NCBI GenBank assembly: GCA_024679065.1
Contig: JAGIQG010000029.1
Coordinates: 8,928,001-8,992,000 of the forward strand
Direction of reading: 5' to 3'
DNA: 64,000 bases
From: Sphyrna mokarran
Lineage: Eukaryota
Each line of letters opens with the position of its first letter. Within the stretch, counting starts at the first letter, position 1. A model generated the notes under the pieces. That model was not told where the DNA came from, searched no databases, and worked only from the letters and a program-made list of their open reading frames with translations. The position numbers were made by a program, and so were the translations under genes. This document shows positions 7,559 to 57,465 of the stretch, piece by piece.

Positions 7559-8097
7559 TGAACAAAACAGCACGGGGAACAGGCCCTTCGGCCCAATGAG
7601 CCCGCGCCGCCACCCCGATGTTCCCACCTCAACCTGTGATCCCTGTCTGTGTTTATAGATCTATGGATTAAAAAACCAAATTTGAGACAATTTAGGGAGA
7701 ATTTGTTTTGCCAATTAGCCTAAGAGCACATCTTTGGGATGTGGGAGGAAACCGGAGTGCCTGGAGAAAACCTACGCAAGCACGGGGAGAATGCGCAAAC
7801 TCCCACAGACACAGGCCCAAATCCATGTATCTGCACAGCACAGCCATAGTCACTGAGCTGTTGTGTTGCCCATCAAATGGTCCAGGTCAAACGTACACTA
7901 ACGACATGAAGCACTAGGATACTCTCAAAAGATCCAAGAGCAGCCCTCTCACGACCCATCGCGTGTATGCCCCTCATTAGACGACAAGGTGGACCAAAGC
8001 ACCTGTAGGATAAAAACAAGTACATCAATATCATCGTCTATTTACACCAGGGACTCCCAAGGCTCATGATCCCTATTTTAAATCAGTTTTCTATACC
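7559..8097 (-). mobile_element. 5'-truncated CR1 LINE copy consisting of the V-SINE-containing 3' UTR
   Basis: Reverse complement of 49845-50392, ending in gggccgaagggcctgttccccgtgctgttttgttc. Confidence 0.85.
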
Positions 8098-24888: not shown

Positions 24889-25007
24889 CTGAACAAAGAA
24901 CAAAACAGCACAGGAAACAGGCCCTTCGGCCCAACGAGCCCGCGCCGCCACCCCAATGTTCCCACCTCTACCCGTGATCCCTGTCCATGTTTATAGATCT
25001 ATGGATT
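24889..25007 (-). mobile_element. Very short 3'-end copy of the young CR1 family
   Basis: Near-identical to 7559-7668 and to the reverse complement of 50280-50392. Confidence 0.85.
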
Positions 25008-35379: not shown

Positions 35380-38300
35380 AAACAAGCCAGTAAATTAATT
35401 AATAGGTTGCAAAAGTTTTTTTTTAAGCAAACAAAAAAGGCAAGAGAGTAGCTGAAATAAATGTTGGAGCATTAAAAAGCACTAACAAGATACATTTATC
35501 ATGAAGTGGGGAAATAGCGGAGACATTGCACATATCTTTTGTCTGTCTTCACAGTGGAAGACAAGCTACATACCAATAGTGGAAAGCAGCCTAGGGGCTA
35601 GTACGAGTGAGGAAATTAATATCAGAAGAGAGAAAACTTAAAAGATTAAAATCCCACATCCACAGGTACTGATGTTGCCACATCCAAGGGCTTTAAAAGA
35701 AAGAATCCAAGCTGCAGTGATGTGTATATGTAGCTGTGGTTTTCTACAATTCCCTAGATTCTAGACTTGTCCCCGCAGATTGGACATTAGCAAATGTAAC
35801 ACTGCAGTTCAAAAGAGGGAAAGAATTACAGGCCAATTAGCCTGACAGCTGTCATTAGTGAATTGCGAGAATCCATTATTAAACAAGTCTTTAAAATGTA
35901 CTTAAAAGCATAGTATGAATAGAACAGGTCAGCACAGTTTTACAAAAGGGTAATGGTGTTTGACCAATTTATCAGACTTTTTCGAGTAGGGTAGCTCGAG
36001 AACCATTAGATTTAATATAGAATAAAAACAAAAAATGCTAGGTAAATTTAAGAGGGGAGTGTGTGCAACGAGACTTTGTGCCCCGTACACCAGTCACTGA
36101 AGGTAAGTGTATAAATGCAGCAAGTGGTAAAAGAAAACCAATGGTATGTTGGTCTTCATAGCATGGATTTCCTCTGGGTGCTCTGGTTTCCTCGCGTAAT
36201 CCAAAGATATGTGGGTTAGGTTGATTGGCCGTGCTAAATTGCCCCTTAGTATCAGGGGGATTAACAAGGTAAATAAGTGGGTTATGGATTAGAACCTGGG
36301 TGGGGCTGTTGTTGGTGCAGGTTCAAAGAGCCAAATGACCTCCTTCTGCACTGAGGATTTTATGATTCGTATACAGGAGCAGGGATGTCTTGCTGCAGTT
36401 ATACAAGGCCTTGGTGAGGCCAGACTTGGCATATTGTATGTAGTTTTGCTCACCTCATCTGAGGAAGGATGTTCTTGCTATAGAGTGAGTGCAATGAAGG
36501 TTTACCAGAATGGATCCTAGGATAGCAGTACTGACATATGAAGAGAGATTTGAGTCAGTTAGGATTATACCCTCAGAAGAATGAGGGAGGATCTCGTAAT
36601 TATACCATCCTAACAGGACGAGACAGGGTAGATGCAGGATGCATGTTCCCAATGGTGAGTGTGTCCAAAACCAAGGATCTCAGCCTGAGGAAACAGGATA
36701 AACATTTTAGAGCTTGAGATGGGGAGAAGTTTCTTCACCTAAAGAGTGGTAAGCCTCTGAAATTCCATACTACAGGAAGCAGTTTAGGCCAAAACATTGT
36801 ATATTTTTAAGATGGCATTAGTTGTAGCTCTTGAGGCGAATGGAATCAAATGATATGAAGGGAAGGCGGGATCAGGCTATCGAGTTGGATGATCAGCCAT
36901 GAGCATAATGAATGGCAGAGCAGTTTCTAAGGGCTGAGTGGGCTCTTCCTGCTCCTATATAACTCAGCAGATCTGGCAGCATCTGTGGAGAGAGAAACAA
37001 AAGTTAACCTTTCAAATCTAAATGGTCCTTTTACATATACAGATGTAATGTGCTTGCATTTCCAAAGATGTCTTATAAAGTGTAACACATCAGATTAATA
37101 CACAAGATAAGGGATACTGGAGTTTCTAAGAACATAAGAAATAGGAGCAGGAGTAGGCATTCCAGCCTCTCAAGCCTGCCCCGTCATTCAGTAAGATCAT
37201 GGCTGATCTGCAGTGGTTCAATACCACTTTCCCACTTTCTCCTCATAACCCTTAATTCCCTTGTCAACCAAAAACCAAAATGTTCTTGGCTTGAACATAC
37301 TCAGTGAGGAAGCTTCCACCACTTCAAGAGGCAGAGAATTCCAAAGATTCACCACCCTTTGCGTGAAGAAATTCCTCCTCAACTCTGATCTGAACATAGC
37401 CCCCTCCCCCCCACCCCAATCTTGAAGCTGTGCCCTCTAGTCCCGCTATCTTTGTTAAGCGGGAAGAGTCTCTCAACCTCCACCCTATCCATCCCCTTTA
37501 TTATCTTATACATCTCTATAAGATCCCCTCTCAGTCTTCTAAACTCCAAAGAGTACAAACCTAGCCTATAGTTCCATGTCCAAGGTAGGTCTGTTCTGTA
37601 ATGCTGTACTCTCCCTTATGCAAATTGCAAGTAAATATGTCACAGATCACCGCAGCTGGAACTGGGTCAACTGCACTTTACATGCATGTTGAATCTGGAG
37701 CTTCAAATAATGGTAGTCTCCAGCTGTCTTTTCCATCACATGGTTGACTACTGCACTTAAACCTATGATTGACGTATCTTGGAAGGTTTTTACAAATTGA
37801 TAATCAACTTGCTTGGCTTTATTATGAACATTTCTTTCTTGGTCGTCATCTTCTGGAGTAGTCTTGAATCCAGAGCTTCTAACTCGGCAGGGACACCACT
37901 CACTGCACCACAAGAGCCTACCCTCATGCAGTTAGGGCTAATGGTTTAGATAAAGGATTGCTTGCAGACAGGAAGCAGAGAATAGGCATGAAGCATTTTA
38001 AAATTGATAGACTGTGATTAGTAGCATGCCACAAGTATCAGTGTTGGAGCCTCAGCTATTTACAATCTATATTAATGACTTAGAGAGTAATGTATTCAGA
38101 TTTGCTGATGATACAAAGCTAGGTGGAAATGCAAGCTGTGAGGAACGTACAGAAATAGACAGGTTAATTGAGTGGGTAACAAGGTAGTAGATGAAGTATA
38201 ATGTGGAAAAGTGTGTGATTGTTCATTTTGTCATCAGAATAGAAAATCAGAATATTTTTTCCAAGGTGTGAAACTTGCAAATATTGCTGCTTGGAGAGAC

Positions 38301-46670: not shown

Positions 46671-46987
46671 TCATGAATCGCTTCCTGTCAGATGAGCGAT
46701 TTTAAAAAATATTCAGTCTTGCATTGCAATGGGATTCTGAATTGCAGGTGCTTTGTGCTTTGTATATTGAGAGAGCAAGTGTTAGAGCTTCTTGGTAGCA
46801 TTAAAACTGATAAATCTCCGGGGCCTGATGGCATTTATCCCAGGCTGCTTAGGGAGGTGCGAGGTGAAATTGCTGAGCCTCTGACGCAAATCTTTGTCTC
46901 TTTGGACACAGGTGAGGTCCCAGAGGACTGGAGAATAGCTAATGTTGTACTGTTGTTTAAAAAGGGTAGTAGGGATAACCCTGGAAA

Positions 46988-47010
46988 GCGGGAGTAACTA
47001 TGACTCTCTT
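46988..47010 (+). rRNA. 23-nt fragment of 28S rRNA (R2 target upstream flank)
   Basis: gcgggagtaactatgactctctt matches 28S GGCGGGAGTAACTATGACTCTCTTAAGG^TAGCC. Confidence 0.92.
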
Positions 47011-47124
47011 GTTACTTTAGCTGTGCGTGTCTTGTCAATTCTGCCGCACAGTGAGCTGCGCCTCCTCGTCGGTCCCGCCGGGCAACATCACCGCTACTCC
47101 ATCGTGGTGATGGCTAAAGCAGCT
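46988..47124 (+). ncRNA. HDV-like self-cleaving ribozyme (R2 5' type)
   Basis: P1 GCGGG/CCCGC(C); P2 AGCUGC 47054-47059 / GCAGCU 47119-47124; P3 GCC/GGU; L3 UCCUCGUC; P1.1 CC/GG; GCAA; P4 CAUCACC/GGUGAUG; J4/2 GCUAAA with candidate catalytic C at 47114. Confidence 0.88.
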
Positions 47125-47880
47125 GTCCTAGAATCGACGCGGAGTAGTTGTTTGTCTGGATGCCCGTGTCAGGCTGCAACTACAGACAAGTGGATGGAAG
47201 GATTGGCTAAGCCGAAATAAAGGCGATTGATAGCCAATCCCTGTAACTGTGGGGTCTTCTGGTTTCTACCCACAGTGAGTCAATCCCTTCCGTGGGAGCC
47301 ACCTGGTACCGTCTCCTTGGGCACAGGAGTGGGTATTCCGTGACTGGTGGAGAAACAAATAGCGGGGGCGATGCATGCCAGGTCCACGACCACTACCACA
47401 ACCACTTGGACTGCCATCCAAGAGTGGTATTGATGGAAGGGACGCTGTTGTGTGTTGCATAGCTGTGGTATTCTTGGCATTCTAGACCACAGTGAGTCAG
47501 TCCTTACCGATGGTGCCACAGGGAATTCAGGCCTTCGAGCTGGCAGGCGATGGCCTGAAGGAATCTGACTGGCAGAGAATAGCCAAAATGCTTCTATGCC
47601 TATAAACCCGGTTATTGGTGAAAGAGAAAAAGTTTTGGCTTGACAAGTTCCGGCTTGTCCCGGGGTTAATTGGTGATCCGCTGGCGGATGCGGTCACGCT
47701 TATCTAGGCATCAGAAGCACCCGCGACCCCCTACCCACACAATTCGGTACAGAGGGTAAGACGAACGAACTGTGCCTGGTGTGACACGGAGAAGGGACGT
47801 AGTGCCCCGTCTTGTCTCTGATGATCACTACCAGCGGATGACATCGACACCGATTTCCACCCAGGTGTCGCGGTACGTAT

Positions 47881-48079
47881 GGGCAACACATCAGCCCAGT
47901 GATTAGCACTGCTGGCTGGTCAGCTATAAGGACCCTGGGTCGACCATCGACCTCGGCCTGTGGCTGAGGGAGTTTGCACATTCTCTCCGTGTTTGCGTGG
48001 GTTTTCCCCGGGTACTCCGGTTTCCTCCCACATACCCAAAAACGTGCTAACTCGGTTAATTGGCTAAGACAAAATTGTC
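47881..48079 (+). mobile_element. Diverged tRNA head and V-domain SINE cassette inside the R2-like element
   Basis: gggcaacac...cagtgattagcactgctg...gggagtttgcacattctctccgtgtttgcgtgggttttccccgggtactccggtttcctcccaca; no SINE tail. Confidence 0.85.
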
Positions 48080-48365
48080 ACGTCACCTAATCTGGCTCCC
48101 TTTTGATTTGGCACAAATATATCCCTTAAATTCTAAATTCCCTCCCTCATGTAAGAGAGCCGAGCACCGACCACACAATGCCGTCAAAAGGCTCATTAAA
48201 TTGCCCATAAACATCAGGGATGACAATAAATAGAGCTTTCTATAAAATCTTAGCTTAAATCCCAGCTCATACCCCAGCTAATAACATCTTAGCAGGGAAT
48301 CCAACCGAGCCACAAACTTAGATCAAGTAGACCCCGGCTGGGGCTCTGCTAGTGGTAGACCAAAC

Positions 48366-48419
48366 CGTCGACGAGCGACGTAAAGACTCGGAAAAGGCAC
48401 TCATGCGGGTGTATTAAAA
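48366..48419 (+). other. R2-type 3' terminal pseudoknot plus hairpin (putative R2 protein recognition module)
   Basis: Stem CGUCG/CGACG with loop ACGAG pairing to CUCG (48387-48390), then GAAAAG, hairpin GCACUC/GGGUGU, A tail. Confidence 0.72.
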
Positions 48420-48859
48420 TAGGCTGGTGAGTTTGACGTCAGTGGTAGGGAAGCTGTTGGAGGGGATTCTTAGGATGTATAGGCACTTAGAGCGTTGCGA
48501 TCTGATTAGGGATACGCAGCATGGCTTTAAGGGGAGGTCATGCCTTACAAATCTGGTAGAATTTTTTGAGGAGGTGACGAAGACGGTGGATGAAGGGCGA
48601 GGCGTTGATGTCGTCTATATGGATTTTAGTAAGGCGTTTGACAAAGTCCCTCGTGGGAGGTTAGTTGAGAATGTCAAGGCTAATGAGATACAAGGACAGG
48701 TAGCTAGATGGATAAGTAACTGGCTTGGTAATAGGAGACAGAGAGTAATAGTGGAAGGGTGTTTTTCTAGCTGGAGGTCGGTCACTAGTGGTGTGCCGCA
48801 GGGCTCGGTACTGGGACCTCTTCTATTTGTAATATATATAAATGACTTGGAGTAAGTCC

Positions 48860-49017
48860 CTTTGTATATTGAAAGAGCAAATGTTAGAGCTTCTAGGTAG
48901 CATTAAAACTGATAAATCTCGGGGCTGATGGCATTTATCCCAGGCTGCTTAGGGAGGTGCGAGGTGAAATTGCTGAGCCTCTGACGCAAATCTTTGTCTC
49001 TTGGACACAGGTGAGGT
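48860..49017 (+). repeat. Internal direct duplication of 46758-46918 within the CR1 RT
   Basis: ctttgtatattga...gggaggtgcgaggtgaaattgctgagcctctgacgcaaatctttgtctc...ggacacaggtgaggt occurs twice, differing by a few substitutions and 1-2 nt indels. Confidence 0.95.
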
Positions 49018-51559
49018 GCAAGAGAGTAAGTGGGTGATCAGCAAGTTTGCAGACGATACAAAGATGGCTGGACTTGCGGATAGTGAGGAGCATTGTCAGG
49101 CGATACAGCAGGACATAGGCTGGTAGCTTGGGCAGACAGATGGCAGATGGAATTCAATCCTGATAAATGTGAGGTGATGCATTTTGGGAGAAAGAATGTA
49201 GGGGCGAGGTATATGAGAAAGGGTAGACCTATTAAGAGTATAGAAACGCAGAGGGACCTGGGGGTGCAGGTGAACAAGTCTCTGAAGGTGGCAGAGCAAG
49301 TGGAGAAGAAAGCATATGGTATGTTTTCCTTTATAGGAAGGGGTATAGAGTACAAGAGCTGGCCTTTAACGTTGCAGTTGTATAAAATGTTGGTTAGATC
49401 TCGTTTGGAATACTGCGTCCAGTTCTGGCCGCCTTACTACCGGAAGGATGTAGAGACTCTAGAAGGAGTGCAGAGGAGGTTTACCAGGATGCTGACTGGT
49501 ATGGAAGGTCTGAGTTACGAGGAGAGGTTAGGCAAATTGGGGCTGTTTTCCTTAAAAAGACGTAGACTTAGAGGAGATCTAATAGAGGTGTACAAGATTG
49601 AGGGGTATAGGTAGAGTTAACAGGGTTAAGCTTTTTCCTAGGATGGACTCAAATAGCACGAGGGGTCAAGGGCTTCGGGTGAGGGGGTAAGGTATAATTT
49701 GGATGCTAGAGGGAGTTTTTTCACACAGAGGATGGCGGGGGTATGGAACGCGCTGCCAAGTAAAATGGTGGAGGCAGGTACTCTGGAGTTATTTAAGAGA
49801 TACTTAGATGGGCACATGAACAGAATGGGAATGGAGGGGTATAGAAAACTGATTTAAAATAGGGATCATGAGCCTTGGGAGTCCCTGGGAAGTGTGTGAA
49901 TAGATGATGATATTGATGTATTTGTTTTTATCCTACAGGTACTTTGGTCCACCTTGTTGCCTAATAAGAGGCGTACACGTGATGGGTTGTGAGAGGGCTG
50001 CTCTTGGATTTTTGTTTTTGAGAGTATCTTAGTGCTTCACATCGTTAGTGTACGCTTGACCTGGACCATTTGATGGGCAACATGACAGCTCAGTGACTAT
50101 CTCTGTGCTGTGCAGATACATGGATTTGGGCCTGTGTCTGTGGGAGTTTGTGCATTCTCCCCGTGTTTGCGTGGGTTTTGTCCAAGTGTTCTGGTTTCCT
50201 CCCACATCCCAAAGATGTGCTCTTAGGCTGATTGGCAGAACAAACTCTTCCTAAATTGTCTGAAATTTGGTTTTTAGTCCATGGATGTATAAACATAGAC
50301 AGGGATCACGTGTAGAAGTGAGAACATCAAGGTGGCGGCGTGGGCTTGTTGGGCCGAAGGGCCTGTTTCCCATGCTGTTTTGTTGTTTGTTCTTTGAGAC
50401 TTCCATCTGCAACTAGTACGGTGTCTTTATTTTGCCTTCCGCATGGCTTCAATTTGGAGAGACTTGGGCAAAACTGGACCACCATCGCCACTGGATTTAT
50501 TACTGGCACTGAGCAGTAAAGTGTTGGCACTGAAATGTAAAGATACCTGTTGAAGATTGATGATGACATGGTAGCATCTTCTGAATATTGCCAGTGGTTC
50601 ATTGACGATGGAGCTTTTACCCCAGAGCTATGTGTTTATGTTCTGTAGCTCTTGAGATAGTTTACATGCAAGAATTTCCTTGGAAAACTGCTGTGTTTGT
50701 CTGAAGCAGCATTGCTTGAGAATTAATCAGCATGAAAGTTATCTTTAAAGGCAAAAGTATTATAAATGTTAATGTTAATGCATAGGTGGCATCTAGACAG
50801 GGTAGTGTTTCCATACCAGGTGTGAGATGCATACTCTTTGTCTCCAGGCTAATCACTAGATGTAAATGACATAGCGGGAAGTATTAAATGATGTTGAAGT
50901 TGTTAATGTCTTTGTCACTTTGAGGCTTAATATAATCACATTGATATCTTCCTTCAGTTAATTTATTGTTTTGAAGGTAAAACGTTGGAACCTTTTTTAT
51001 TTCATTTTTCTCGTCAACACACAATAAATTGAAACTGGAGATGGATAAAGCTGCAAACTTGGGTCTCCTGAACGGAACTTGACTTGTTCCTCCAGAGAAA
51101 CTCAGGCTTTTGAACTGTTTGCTTTGTTCTCCTAAATACTCTGCAGTCTCACAGCTTCCATAAAATAATGACTTTTGTTGCTTTGAAAGAGTGTTTTAAT
51201 GAAACTGCAGAGAACTATTATTGGTTTCTACTGCAGCTTTTAAGATTGTAATTCTAATAAGAGTGCATTAGTTTAAATTGGATCATGCATGTAGTGAGTT
51301 CTTGCTATATTTATGGGGTGCAGTGTGTATGTTTATGTATTTAGAACTTAAAATTGAAGCTTTCCTCAACCTCAGAAAAAAGGAAAACAATGCAAATGCA
51401 TCAGAGACTGTTTCTTGGATCTTAACCAGCAAGAATATCGAACATTTTGTACATATTGTACAATTAATTATGTTGTTTGTCTATGTTTCCGTGTTTTGTA
51501 TACTATTTTATAGTACTTGCTTTTTAAGAAACACCAGTATACAAAATATACCAGTATAC

Positions 51560-56191: not shown

Positions 56192-57465
56192 TGGATTGGC
56201 GGGTACAGAGGAGCAGTGCCAGGCAATACAACAGGACATAGATAGGTTGGTAGACTGGGTAGATAGATGGCAAATGGAATTTAATCCGGATAAATGCGAG
56301 GTGATGCATTTTGGCCGGAAAAATGTAGAAGAGAGTTATAGGATAAAAGGCAATACTATACGGAGCATAGAGACACAGAGAGACTTGGGGGTGCAGGTTC
56401 ACAAGTCTCTGAAGGTGTCCTCACAGGTGGAGAAGGTGATAAAGAAGGCGTATAGTATGTTAGCTTTCATAGAAAAGGGTATAGAATACAAGAGTAGGAG
56501 TTTGATGTTGCAGTTGTATAGAACGTTGGTTAGGCCTCACTTGGAATACTGCGTCCAGTTCTGGTCGCCGTACTATCGGAAGGATGTGGAGTCCTTGGAG
56601 GGAGTGCAGAGGAGGTTTACCAGGATGCTGCCTGGTATGGAAGGACTGTCTTATGAGGAACGATTAGATAGACTGGGGTTGTTTTCCCTTGAAAGACGTC
56701 GGCTTAGAGGGGATCTCATAGAGGTGTATAAGATTATAAGGGGTATAGATAGAGTAAATGGAGGTAAACTTTTTCCACCTTTAGAAATGGATAGGACGAG
56801 GGGTCATGGCCATAGGGTGAGGGGGGCTATGTATAAGACGAATATTAGAGGGCAGTTTTTCACACAAAGGGTAGTGGGGGTGTGGAATGCACTGCCGAGT
56901 AAGGTGGTGGGAGCAGGCACGCTAGGGCTGTTTAAGGGTCTCTTGGACAGCCACATGAGCGGTATGCAGATAGAGGAATATAGTAGGACTGTTTAACTAT
57001 GGCTTTTTTTTCCACAGGTAATTCGGTCCATACTTGACCAACAAGGAGCATGCATTCGGCAGGTGGTGCGAGGACAGCTCTTGGATGTTGATTCATGGGT
57101 TGCCTGGTGCTTCATGTCGTAAATGAGTGCTTTATCTGGACCATCTGAAGGGCACCATGACAGCTCAGTGACTATCGCTGTAGCTGTGCAGACACTTGGA
57201 ATTGGGCCGGTGTCTGCGGGAGTTTGCGCGTTCTCCCCGTGGTTGCGTGGGTTTTCTCCGGGCGCTCCGGTTTCCTCCCACAACCCAAAAATTCGCTCTT
57301 AGGCTGATTGGGAAACAAATTGTCCCTATAGTGAGAGCCTTCCATATTAGGAATAACCTAAAATTAGAATAGGATAATGGAATTGCTACTATATAGTTAT
57401 GACGGCGGCGCGGGCTCGTTGGGCCGAAGGGCCTGTTTCCCGTGCTGTGTTGCTCTTAAAAAAAA
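56192..57465 (+). mobile_element. Young 5'-truncated CR1 LINE with V-SINE-containing 3' UTR, inserted into an L2 relic
   Basis: Uninterrupted RT C-terminus; probable TSD aatctt at 56186-56191 and 57466-57471; L2 3' relic on both flanks. Confidence 0.9.
56203..56996 (+). pseudogene. CR1 ORF2 C-terminal fragment (open frame)
   Basis: WQMEFNPDKCEVMHFG...RDLGV...RPHLEYCVQFWSP...RRRLRGDLIEVYK...TRGH...FFTQRVVGVWN. Confidence 0.9.

Follow-up and report, generated by a model that had tools for sequence, protein, structure and literature searches.

The window (the whole 64,000-nucleotide stretch of Sphyrna mokarran DNA that was analysed) contains one copy of an insert that interrupts the reverse transcriptase (RT) frame of a LINE. 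The insert is bounded by a start derived from 28S rRNA and by a 3' motif of R2 type. Between these ends lie three ribozyme or ribozyme-like modules, a CpG-rich middle and a module derived from a SINE (Table 1). All comparisons with published R2 sequences were made by eye.

Table 1. The insert, its component parts and the flanking host LINE, with positions numbered from the first base of the window
Feature	Position	Strand	Description
Host LINE ORF2, 5' side	46758..46987	+	Frame runs to the junction
Whole non-autonomous R2-type insert	46988..48419	+	1,432 nt, 52% GC
28S rRNA-derived leader, -27 to -5 of the R2 target	46988..47010	+	5' strand of ribozyme P1
Ribozyme module 1	46988..47124	+	P1, J1/2 hairpin, P2, P3, 8-nt L3, P1.1, P4, J4/2
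Ribozyme-like module 2	47189..47345	+	Hairpin 7/7, P2 5/6, P3 3/3, P1 4/6, P4
Ribozyme-like module 3	47423..47570	+	Hairpin 7/7, P2 6/6, P3 2/3, P1 5/6, 8-bp P4
Structured CpG-rich middle	47590..47878	+	z -1.9 and -2.2; CpG o/e 1.0
SINE-derived module	47879..48080	+	tRNA-like head and conserved core, three hairpins
Hairpin	48326..48350	+	Adjoins pseudoknot upstream; weak, z -1.56
Lead	48360-65	+	5' of stem 1
H-type pseudoknot	48366..48390	+	5-bp stem, loop ACGAG, 6-nt linker, CUCG
Stem 1	CGUCG 48366-70 / CGACG 48376-80	+	5 bp
Loop ACGAG	48371-75	+	Closed by stem 1
Linker, 6 nt	48381-86	+	Between stem 1 and CUCG
CUCG	48387-90	+	Pairs with loop CGAG, 4/4 Watson-Crick
Hinge GAAAAG	48391..48396	+	Sequence-specific R2 protein contact in avian/turtle structures
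Terminal 6-bp stem-loop and A-rich tail	48397..48419	+	Insert 3' end
Host LINE ORF2 and 3' UTR, 3' side	48420..50392	+	Starts TAGG; in-window paralogues

The host element, presumably a CR1 from its motifs, is identified by a Pfam RVT_1 match over 48418-48855 (E=9e-16) and retains stop-free stretches of 145 and ~165 codons. Between 48420 and 49870 its interruptions are for the most part small deletions and not stops, a pattern for which sequencing error may be as responsible as age. In addition, a 168-bp piece of its ORF2 (46758-46925) recurs at 48860-49024 with 94.6% identity, within the RT region of the same LINE, between the YINDL and SKFADD motifs. The duplicate could be the product of a template switch, a second insertion or an assembly error. 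The LINE family has a long 3' UTR, seen here at 49860-50392 and in relatives at 7561-8097 (minus strand), 57005-57452 and 24891-25005 (minus strand). The head and core of a SINE lie within this UTR; they bear an 18-nt deletion, have no B box and are refolded into three hairpins. Folding z values were -2.1, -4.2 and -1.0 for three LINE copies, whereas three free SINE copies ranged from +0.2 to -0.7.

At its 5' end the insert carries a 28S-derived leader that is identical at 23 of 23 positions to the upstream 28S flank of zebra-shark R2-1 (chance expectation 1.7e-9). The place of 28S G-28 is occupied by a host base, A46987. Position -28 is the commonest cleavage position of R2 ribozymes (PMC3774820). 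No other rRNA was found in the window using Rfam at gathering scores (0 matches). With a start one base from -28 and no other 28S sequence, a ribozyme-processed RNA is to be expected rather than an rDNA fragment. The latter was considered as an identity for the whole insert and is ruled out, the only 28S sequence being the 23-nt leader that begins at -27.

The fold that follows is of the HDV type. Module 1 forms five of six P1 pairs, all six P2 pairs and all three P3 pairs, and has a candidate catalytic C in J4/2. The P1 mismatch is the host A that replaces G-28; the first pair of P1 at the present site (46987 / 47079) is consequently an A.C pair supplied by the host base at the junction. A search of 46900-48500 against Rfam at E<=5 returned one sub-threshold match, HDV_ribozyme against module 1 (22.5 bits, E=1.5; gathering score 50). 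Catalytic activity of module 1 is predicted for the parent copy in rDNA. Both L3 and J4/2 are altered from the active pattern in the two later modules, J4/2 of module 3 being without a C, and modules 2 and 3 are probably inactive. R2 ribozymes do tolerate much variation (PMC3774820). An active internal ribozyme would shorten the template, so that silencing of modules 2 and 3 is what would be expected.

The three modules resemble one another well beyond chance: each of the three pairwise alignment scores exceeds 300 of 300 shuffles, and the cores are 74%, 63% and 79% identical. Relative to module 1, P2 carries three two-sided changes in modules 2 and 3. A descriptor of the HDV skeleton matches the three modules alone, with no match in 300 shuffles, but since it was tuned on these same modules it does not constitute independent evidence. 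A fourth ribozyme module was sought in 47611-47880 and in the tail, where similarity did not rise above that of shuffles. J1/2 of module 2 also contains a perfect 10-bp hairpin (47200-47240; z -4.7, 0/200 shuffles). Its 3' arm starts with TAGCCAA, resembling 28S on the downstream side of the R2 site, and a similar heptamer occurs at 47580, after module 3.

The SINE-derived module we take to be V-SINE/HE1. Its tRNA-like head and core are common to 16 other matches in the window, and it differs from V-SINE in that it is refolded, has lost the B box, has no LINE-type tail and sits inside another element. Its best match to the B-box consensus has 4 substitutions compared with 0-1 in 3 free copies. 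The core is 82-86% identical to three copies in the 3' UTR of the host LINE family. Among the 17 window matches it is with these LINE-embedded copies that the module groups (FastTree support 0.959) and with them that it has the three-hairpin fold in common; their 18-nt deletion and their tail are not found in it. ARAGORN detected 0 tRNA genes. A pol III SINE with an R2 tail was considered and is ruled out, as the head is internal and the B box not intact. HE1 is the shark and ray representative of the V-SINE superfamily, and the function of the SINE core is given as unknown in the same source (PMC4824008). Recruitment of a SINE core into the RNA of a LINE, as in the host family, bears on what such cores do.

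No coding capacity was detected in the insert. There are stops in all frames, and Pfam identified 0 families in the six frames. With one frame of the six as query, a PDB search gave 0 matches and a scan of 1.84 billion proteins gave no R2. The scan did return 3 weak matches (E 1.5e-4 to 4e-4), all to residues 311-361, which correspond to the SINE-like part. R2 N-termini are poorly conserved. These searches, the protein ones mostly in one of the six frames, weakly indicate that the insert has no R2 ORF. An autonomous R2 is ruled out, in that no single ORF carries zinc fingers, Myb, RT and endonuclease. By eye, region 47700-47890 shows a faint CxxC in one frame and ISTQ in another, which recall the N-termini of shark lineage-A R2 and are possibly due to chance.

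The 3' end of the insert had been singled out in an initial annotation as a pseudoknot of the kind that terminates R2 3' UTRs. The division of the motif into stem, loop, linker, hinge, hairpin and tail proposed there is exact, base for base, as is the pairing of the loop bases CGAG with the downstream CUCG. The range 48360..48425 given for it is correct as far as 48419, and the last six bases (48420-25) belong to the host LINE flank. Stem 2 (48397-402 / 48407-412) comprises six pairs, two of which are G.U, and the tail AUUAAAA (48413-19) closes the insert. The tested traits of lineage-A R2 3' ends that are present in 48366-48419 are the pseudoknot, the GAAAAG hinge and a terminal stem with an A-rich tract at the end of the element.

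Both stems are recovered by ViennaRNA, a program that cannot model pseudoknots. The folding energy of the motif is ordinary (z = -0.24, with 83/200 shuffles as good; z = -1.24, with 24/200). A descriptor of the published architecture has a single match on both strands of the 64 kb, at 48366. A pattern scan of prokaryotic genome contigs gave 0 matches, which is expected and carries no information. In 150 second-order Markov resamples it matched 2 times when the GAAAAG hinge was specified, 11 times with a looser hinge and 50 times when any six purines were allowed. Because resamples also match, the descriptor by itself provides moderate evidence only. At the level of sequence, what is decisive for the 3' motif is its near-identity with a shark R2 end together with its position exactly at the end of the insert. 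The other end of the insert, with 23 nt of 28S target sequence and an apparently R2-type ribozyme, counts toward this positional evidence.

The avian architecture given in the initial annotation is correct. Avian and turtle R2 elements are described as terminating in a pseudoknot-hinge-stem, in which the 6-nt GAAAAG hinge is read sequence-specifically, the finch loop ACGGG pairs with CCCG and a pseudoknot mutant is rescued by compensatory change (PMC12180492). The same architecture, with three base triples in addition, has been reported for the zebra-finch element (PMC12222951). By counting along the finch 3' UTR (PMC12180492), the pseudoknot pairs are C234-G255, G235-C254, G236-C253 and G237-C252. 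In the structure of the turtle protein, zinc finger 3 reads the base G236 (PMC12180492). Compared with finch, three two-sided changes have occurred and pairing is kept, as had been suggested: two are in stem 1, and in the pseudoknot the G-C pair at 236/253 becomes A-U.

A structural comparison with R2 3' ends, also foreseen in the annotation and done by eye, aligns the motif with those of both finch and zebra-shark R2-1. Up to and including the hinge, 29 of 31 nt are shared with zebra-shark R2-1; with stem 2 included, the figure is 40 of 47 nt (PMC13188248 Table S2). Differences in the stems consist of one G-C/A-U swap and two wobble changes, and no pair is broken. Upstream of its 3' module, zebra-shark R2-1 also has a hairpin in a place similar to that of the hairpin at 48326..48350. 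Among the 3' ends compared, which include 2 of the 13 chondrichthyan rows in PMC13188248 Table S2, zebra-shark R2-1 appears to be the nearest relative.

The ACGAG/CUCG variant is not peculiar to 48366-48390. It is common to the zebra shark, barramundi and killifish R2 rows. At 236/253, finch and ghost shark have G-C and six bird rows have G.U; the A-U of the insert is shared with zebra shark, barramundi and killifish. The G that zinc finger 3 contacts at the finch-236 position is therefore absent from the insert, which has A instead. Since A-236 is also found in zebra shark, barramundi and killifish, G-236 belongs to the structures from birds and turtles and does not characterise the whole lineage.

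The N-terminus of zebra-shark R2-1 has three zinc fingers (PMC13188248 Table S2), and likeness to this element is the reason for assigning the 3' motif to lineage A. The initial annotation had expected the motif to identify the mobilising enzyme as a vertebrate-type R2 protein. R2 is supported by homology, but the motif indicates lineage A and not vertebrates as such. The term 'vertebrate-type' is not specific enough, given that lineage-D R2 also occurs in cartilaginous fish, among them the zebra shark, which carries both lineages A and D (PMC13188248). We infer the identity of the enzyme from this homology; the part of PMC13188248 covered here includes no chondrichthyan R2 among the proteins assayed.

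No target-site duplication was found at the junctions. The host frame resumes with 3 nt missing, as judged from the N-Y-R motif of a divergent in-window paralogue at 35772, and ~3 bp of target have thus been lost. The 3' flank starts with TAGG, where the 28S downstream target starts with TAGC. Upstream, inspection by eye showed no convincing in-register similarity between the host site and the 28S recognition region. At off-target sites of avian R2 in cells, likeness to rDNA is approximately limited to the primer-complementary bases just 3' of the nick (PMC11371274).

The insertion and the inserted sequence appear to differ in age. CpG o/e is 0.92 in module 1 and 0.78 in the 3' part, compared with 0.30 for the window, and is lower in modules 2 (0.47) and 3 (0.39). 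The open host frame and the CpGs that have been kept indicate that the insertion is young, while ribozyme cores that are 63-79% identical indicate that the body is old. An old body in a young insertion implies a replicating lineage. The intact leader further points to a 28S gene as the location of the immediate parent.

We consider it probable that the insert is a non-autonomous, SIDE-like parasite of a chondrichthyan lineage-A (three-zinc-finger) R2, that its parent resided in 28S and that it was inserted here off-target. The parent copy, in the 28S R2 site, would be co-transcribed with rRNA. Ribozyme 1, given its fold, would cut at 28S -28 and release a 1.43-kb RNA in which modules 2 and 3 would be silent. 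An R2 protein from an autonomous element would, by homology, bind the pseudoknot-hinge-stem. Its normal target would be 28S; at this locus the junction suggests off-target priming at a LINE copy, where the TAGG after the nick could have matched three of the four tail bases UAGC. The full-length cDNA would then have been joined to the target by end-joining, which would account for the loss of G-28 and of the target bases and for the lack of a duplication. The composite body (triplicated ribozyme and SINE-derived module) would have arisen in the parasitic lineage before the recent insertion. Against this reading, the sole copy in the 64-kb window is located outside 28S.

Selection may have played a larger part, and a bolder proposal, which we regard as tentative and somewhat unlikely, can be made on this basis. 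The lineage would be a long-lived vertebrate R2 parasite in which the silenced HDV-like folds and the refolded V-SINE core are retained as RNA-stabilising or R2-loading modules; an unrelated LINE 3' UTR would have recruited the same SINE module, and the family would spread outside rDNA. The two-sided P2 changes in modules 2 and 3, the retention of their hairpin and P4, and the three-hairpin fold common to the insert and the LINE-embedded copies are consistent with such retention. A P1 change can nevertheless be explained by CpG decay on both strands, and a different active R2 variant may have given rise to modules 2 and 3. Moreover, a catalytically dead 5' ribozyme is severely inhibitory, and the fold of the 5' ribozyme is itself helpful (both PMC11331408). 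If the proposal is true, evolution has produced an optimised R2 cargo RNA in nature, and the insert provides a direct handle on the conservation of SINE cores.

A recent off-target insertion from a parent in 28S, the reading we prefer, has also to be set against escape from rDNA. The single observed copy lies outside rDNA and could belong to a dispersed family, for which a lineage-A R2 of relaxed specificity would supply the enzyme, with copies transcribed by read-through from host promoters and released by ribozyme 1. HDV-like ribozymes may tolerate an A.C first pair in P1. Non-specific R2 families also exist (R2NS, PMC5035012). A lineage long out of rDNA should, however, show drift of its leader, and the 28S leader, including the part outside P1, is intact at 23/23 positions against 21-37% divergence elsewhere. 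Mismatches in P1 have been proposed to abolish activity (PMC3774820), and there is no second copy in the 64 kb. We therefore find a dispersed family unlikely.

The modular composition of the insert, and the grouping of its SINE-like part with the 3' UTR module of the host LINE family, might suggest a one-off chimera, formed by template jumping as the insertion took place, in which R2 moved from its 3' UTR RNA to a SINE/LINE-UTR RNA and from there to several R2 5' fragments. R2 is known to jump in vivo to snRNA and tRNA (PMC3414825). Several jumps would be required in this case. Modules 2 and 3 are depleted of CpGs and have lost features of the active site, and such losses must have taken time before the insertion, itself young, occurred. 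Lacking the deletion and the tail, the SINE-like part is also 14-18% divergent from its closest in-window relatives. Such a chimera is improbable.

It is more improbable still that a full-length R2 inserted off-target and then degenerated where it lay, losing sequence, duplicating its 5' end and receiving a SINE. Both ends are R2-like and the faint motifs of 47700-47890 would find an explanation. However, the host LINE and the CpGs of the insert look far younger than the 21-37% divergence of the modules, the SINE-like part is without a tail, and no remnant of RT, zinc finger or endonuclease was found (Pfam in six of six frames; protein scan in one of six). Finally, the ordinary folding energy of the motif, and the small deletions and 168-bp internal duplicate of the host LINE, which could be assembly noise, might be taken to indicate a chance motif or an assembly chimera, but this is scarcely credible given the near-identity to a shark R2 end, the location of both insert ends at biologically expected bases and the continuation of the host frame across the insert.

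The pseudoknot alone is ordinary, because its fold has been published for birds and turtles and the same motif is present in a published shark sequence. What is new is the element that the motif terminates; the fold of the motif was already known. Non-autonomous R2 passengers have so far been described in Drosophila, and the insert is apparently the first from a vertebrate; the stack of ribozyme folds is apparently unreported in the literature searched. That literature, which includes PMC13188248, PMC13580325 and PMC10946416 in their available parts, contained no vertebrate non-autonomous R2 and no tandem ribozymes; Repbase/Dfam, subscription journals and most of the PMC13188248 supplements were outside its scope.

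Lineage-A R2 proteins are under development for RNA-only gene insertion, and open design questions there concern off-target insertion and, in the template, the fold of the 5' ribozyme and the pseudoknot at the 3' end. The present locus represents a natural case of full-length insertion off target, and its junctions carry the signature known from human cells. In addition, the series G-C, G.U and A-U at the pair read by zinc finger 3 predicts co-evolution of protein and RNA, and possibly orthogonal pairs of R2 and template.

Several known systems share parts of this organisation. The off-targets of avian R2 in PRINT in human cells have in common with the insert a weak upstream similarity to rDNA and primer-complementary bases after the nick; these result from an engineered template, while 46988..48419 is a natural genomic event (PMC11371274). 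The avian and turtle lineage-A module has the same 5-bp stem, the A followed by a 4-nt loop pairing, the GAAAAG hinge, the terminal stem and the A-rich tail closing the element (PMC12180492; PMC12222951). It differs in the sequence of stem 1, in a linker of 9 nt instead of 6 nt and in a longer terminal stem. The autonomous elements R2-1_STig (zebra shark) and R2-1_HSa (stingray) share with the insert, by eye, the ribozyme core, the 8-nt L3 and the J1/2 hairpin, and covarying pairs are seen between them and ribozyme 1. These elements are 4.2-4.6 kb in length, have an ORF and reside in 28S, none of which is true of the insert, and they have one ribozyme in their first 400 nt where the insert has three modules.

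The closest parallel in organisation is with the R2 SIDEs of Drosophila. Traits of a SIDE that are present in the insert are a 5' HDV-like R2 ribozyme fold, an R2-derived 3' end and no detected coding capacity. Location at the 28S R2 site is absent, the insert lying in a LINE, and for a copy outside 28S the label 'SIDE-like' is preferable to membership of the R2 SIDEs. R2 copies outside 28S have reportedly been seen in silkmoth. The ends are R2-like; the middle consists of duplicated ribozyme, SINE-derived and unassigned sequence, and the element may or may not derive from R2 by internal deletion.

R2Dwi_SIDE likewise combines an R2 ribozyme, an unrelated middle and an R2 3' end, has no ORF, and depends on the R2 protein, as we propose for the insert (PMC3414825). 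R2 SIDEs were uncommon in the Drosophila survey reported there. R2Dwi_SIDE is an insect element of 529 bp compared with 1,432 for the insert, has one ribozyme instead of three modules, is located at the 28S site where the insert copy is off-target, and has no SINE-derived module described for it in the available text (PMC3414825).
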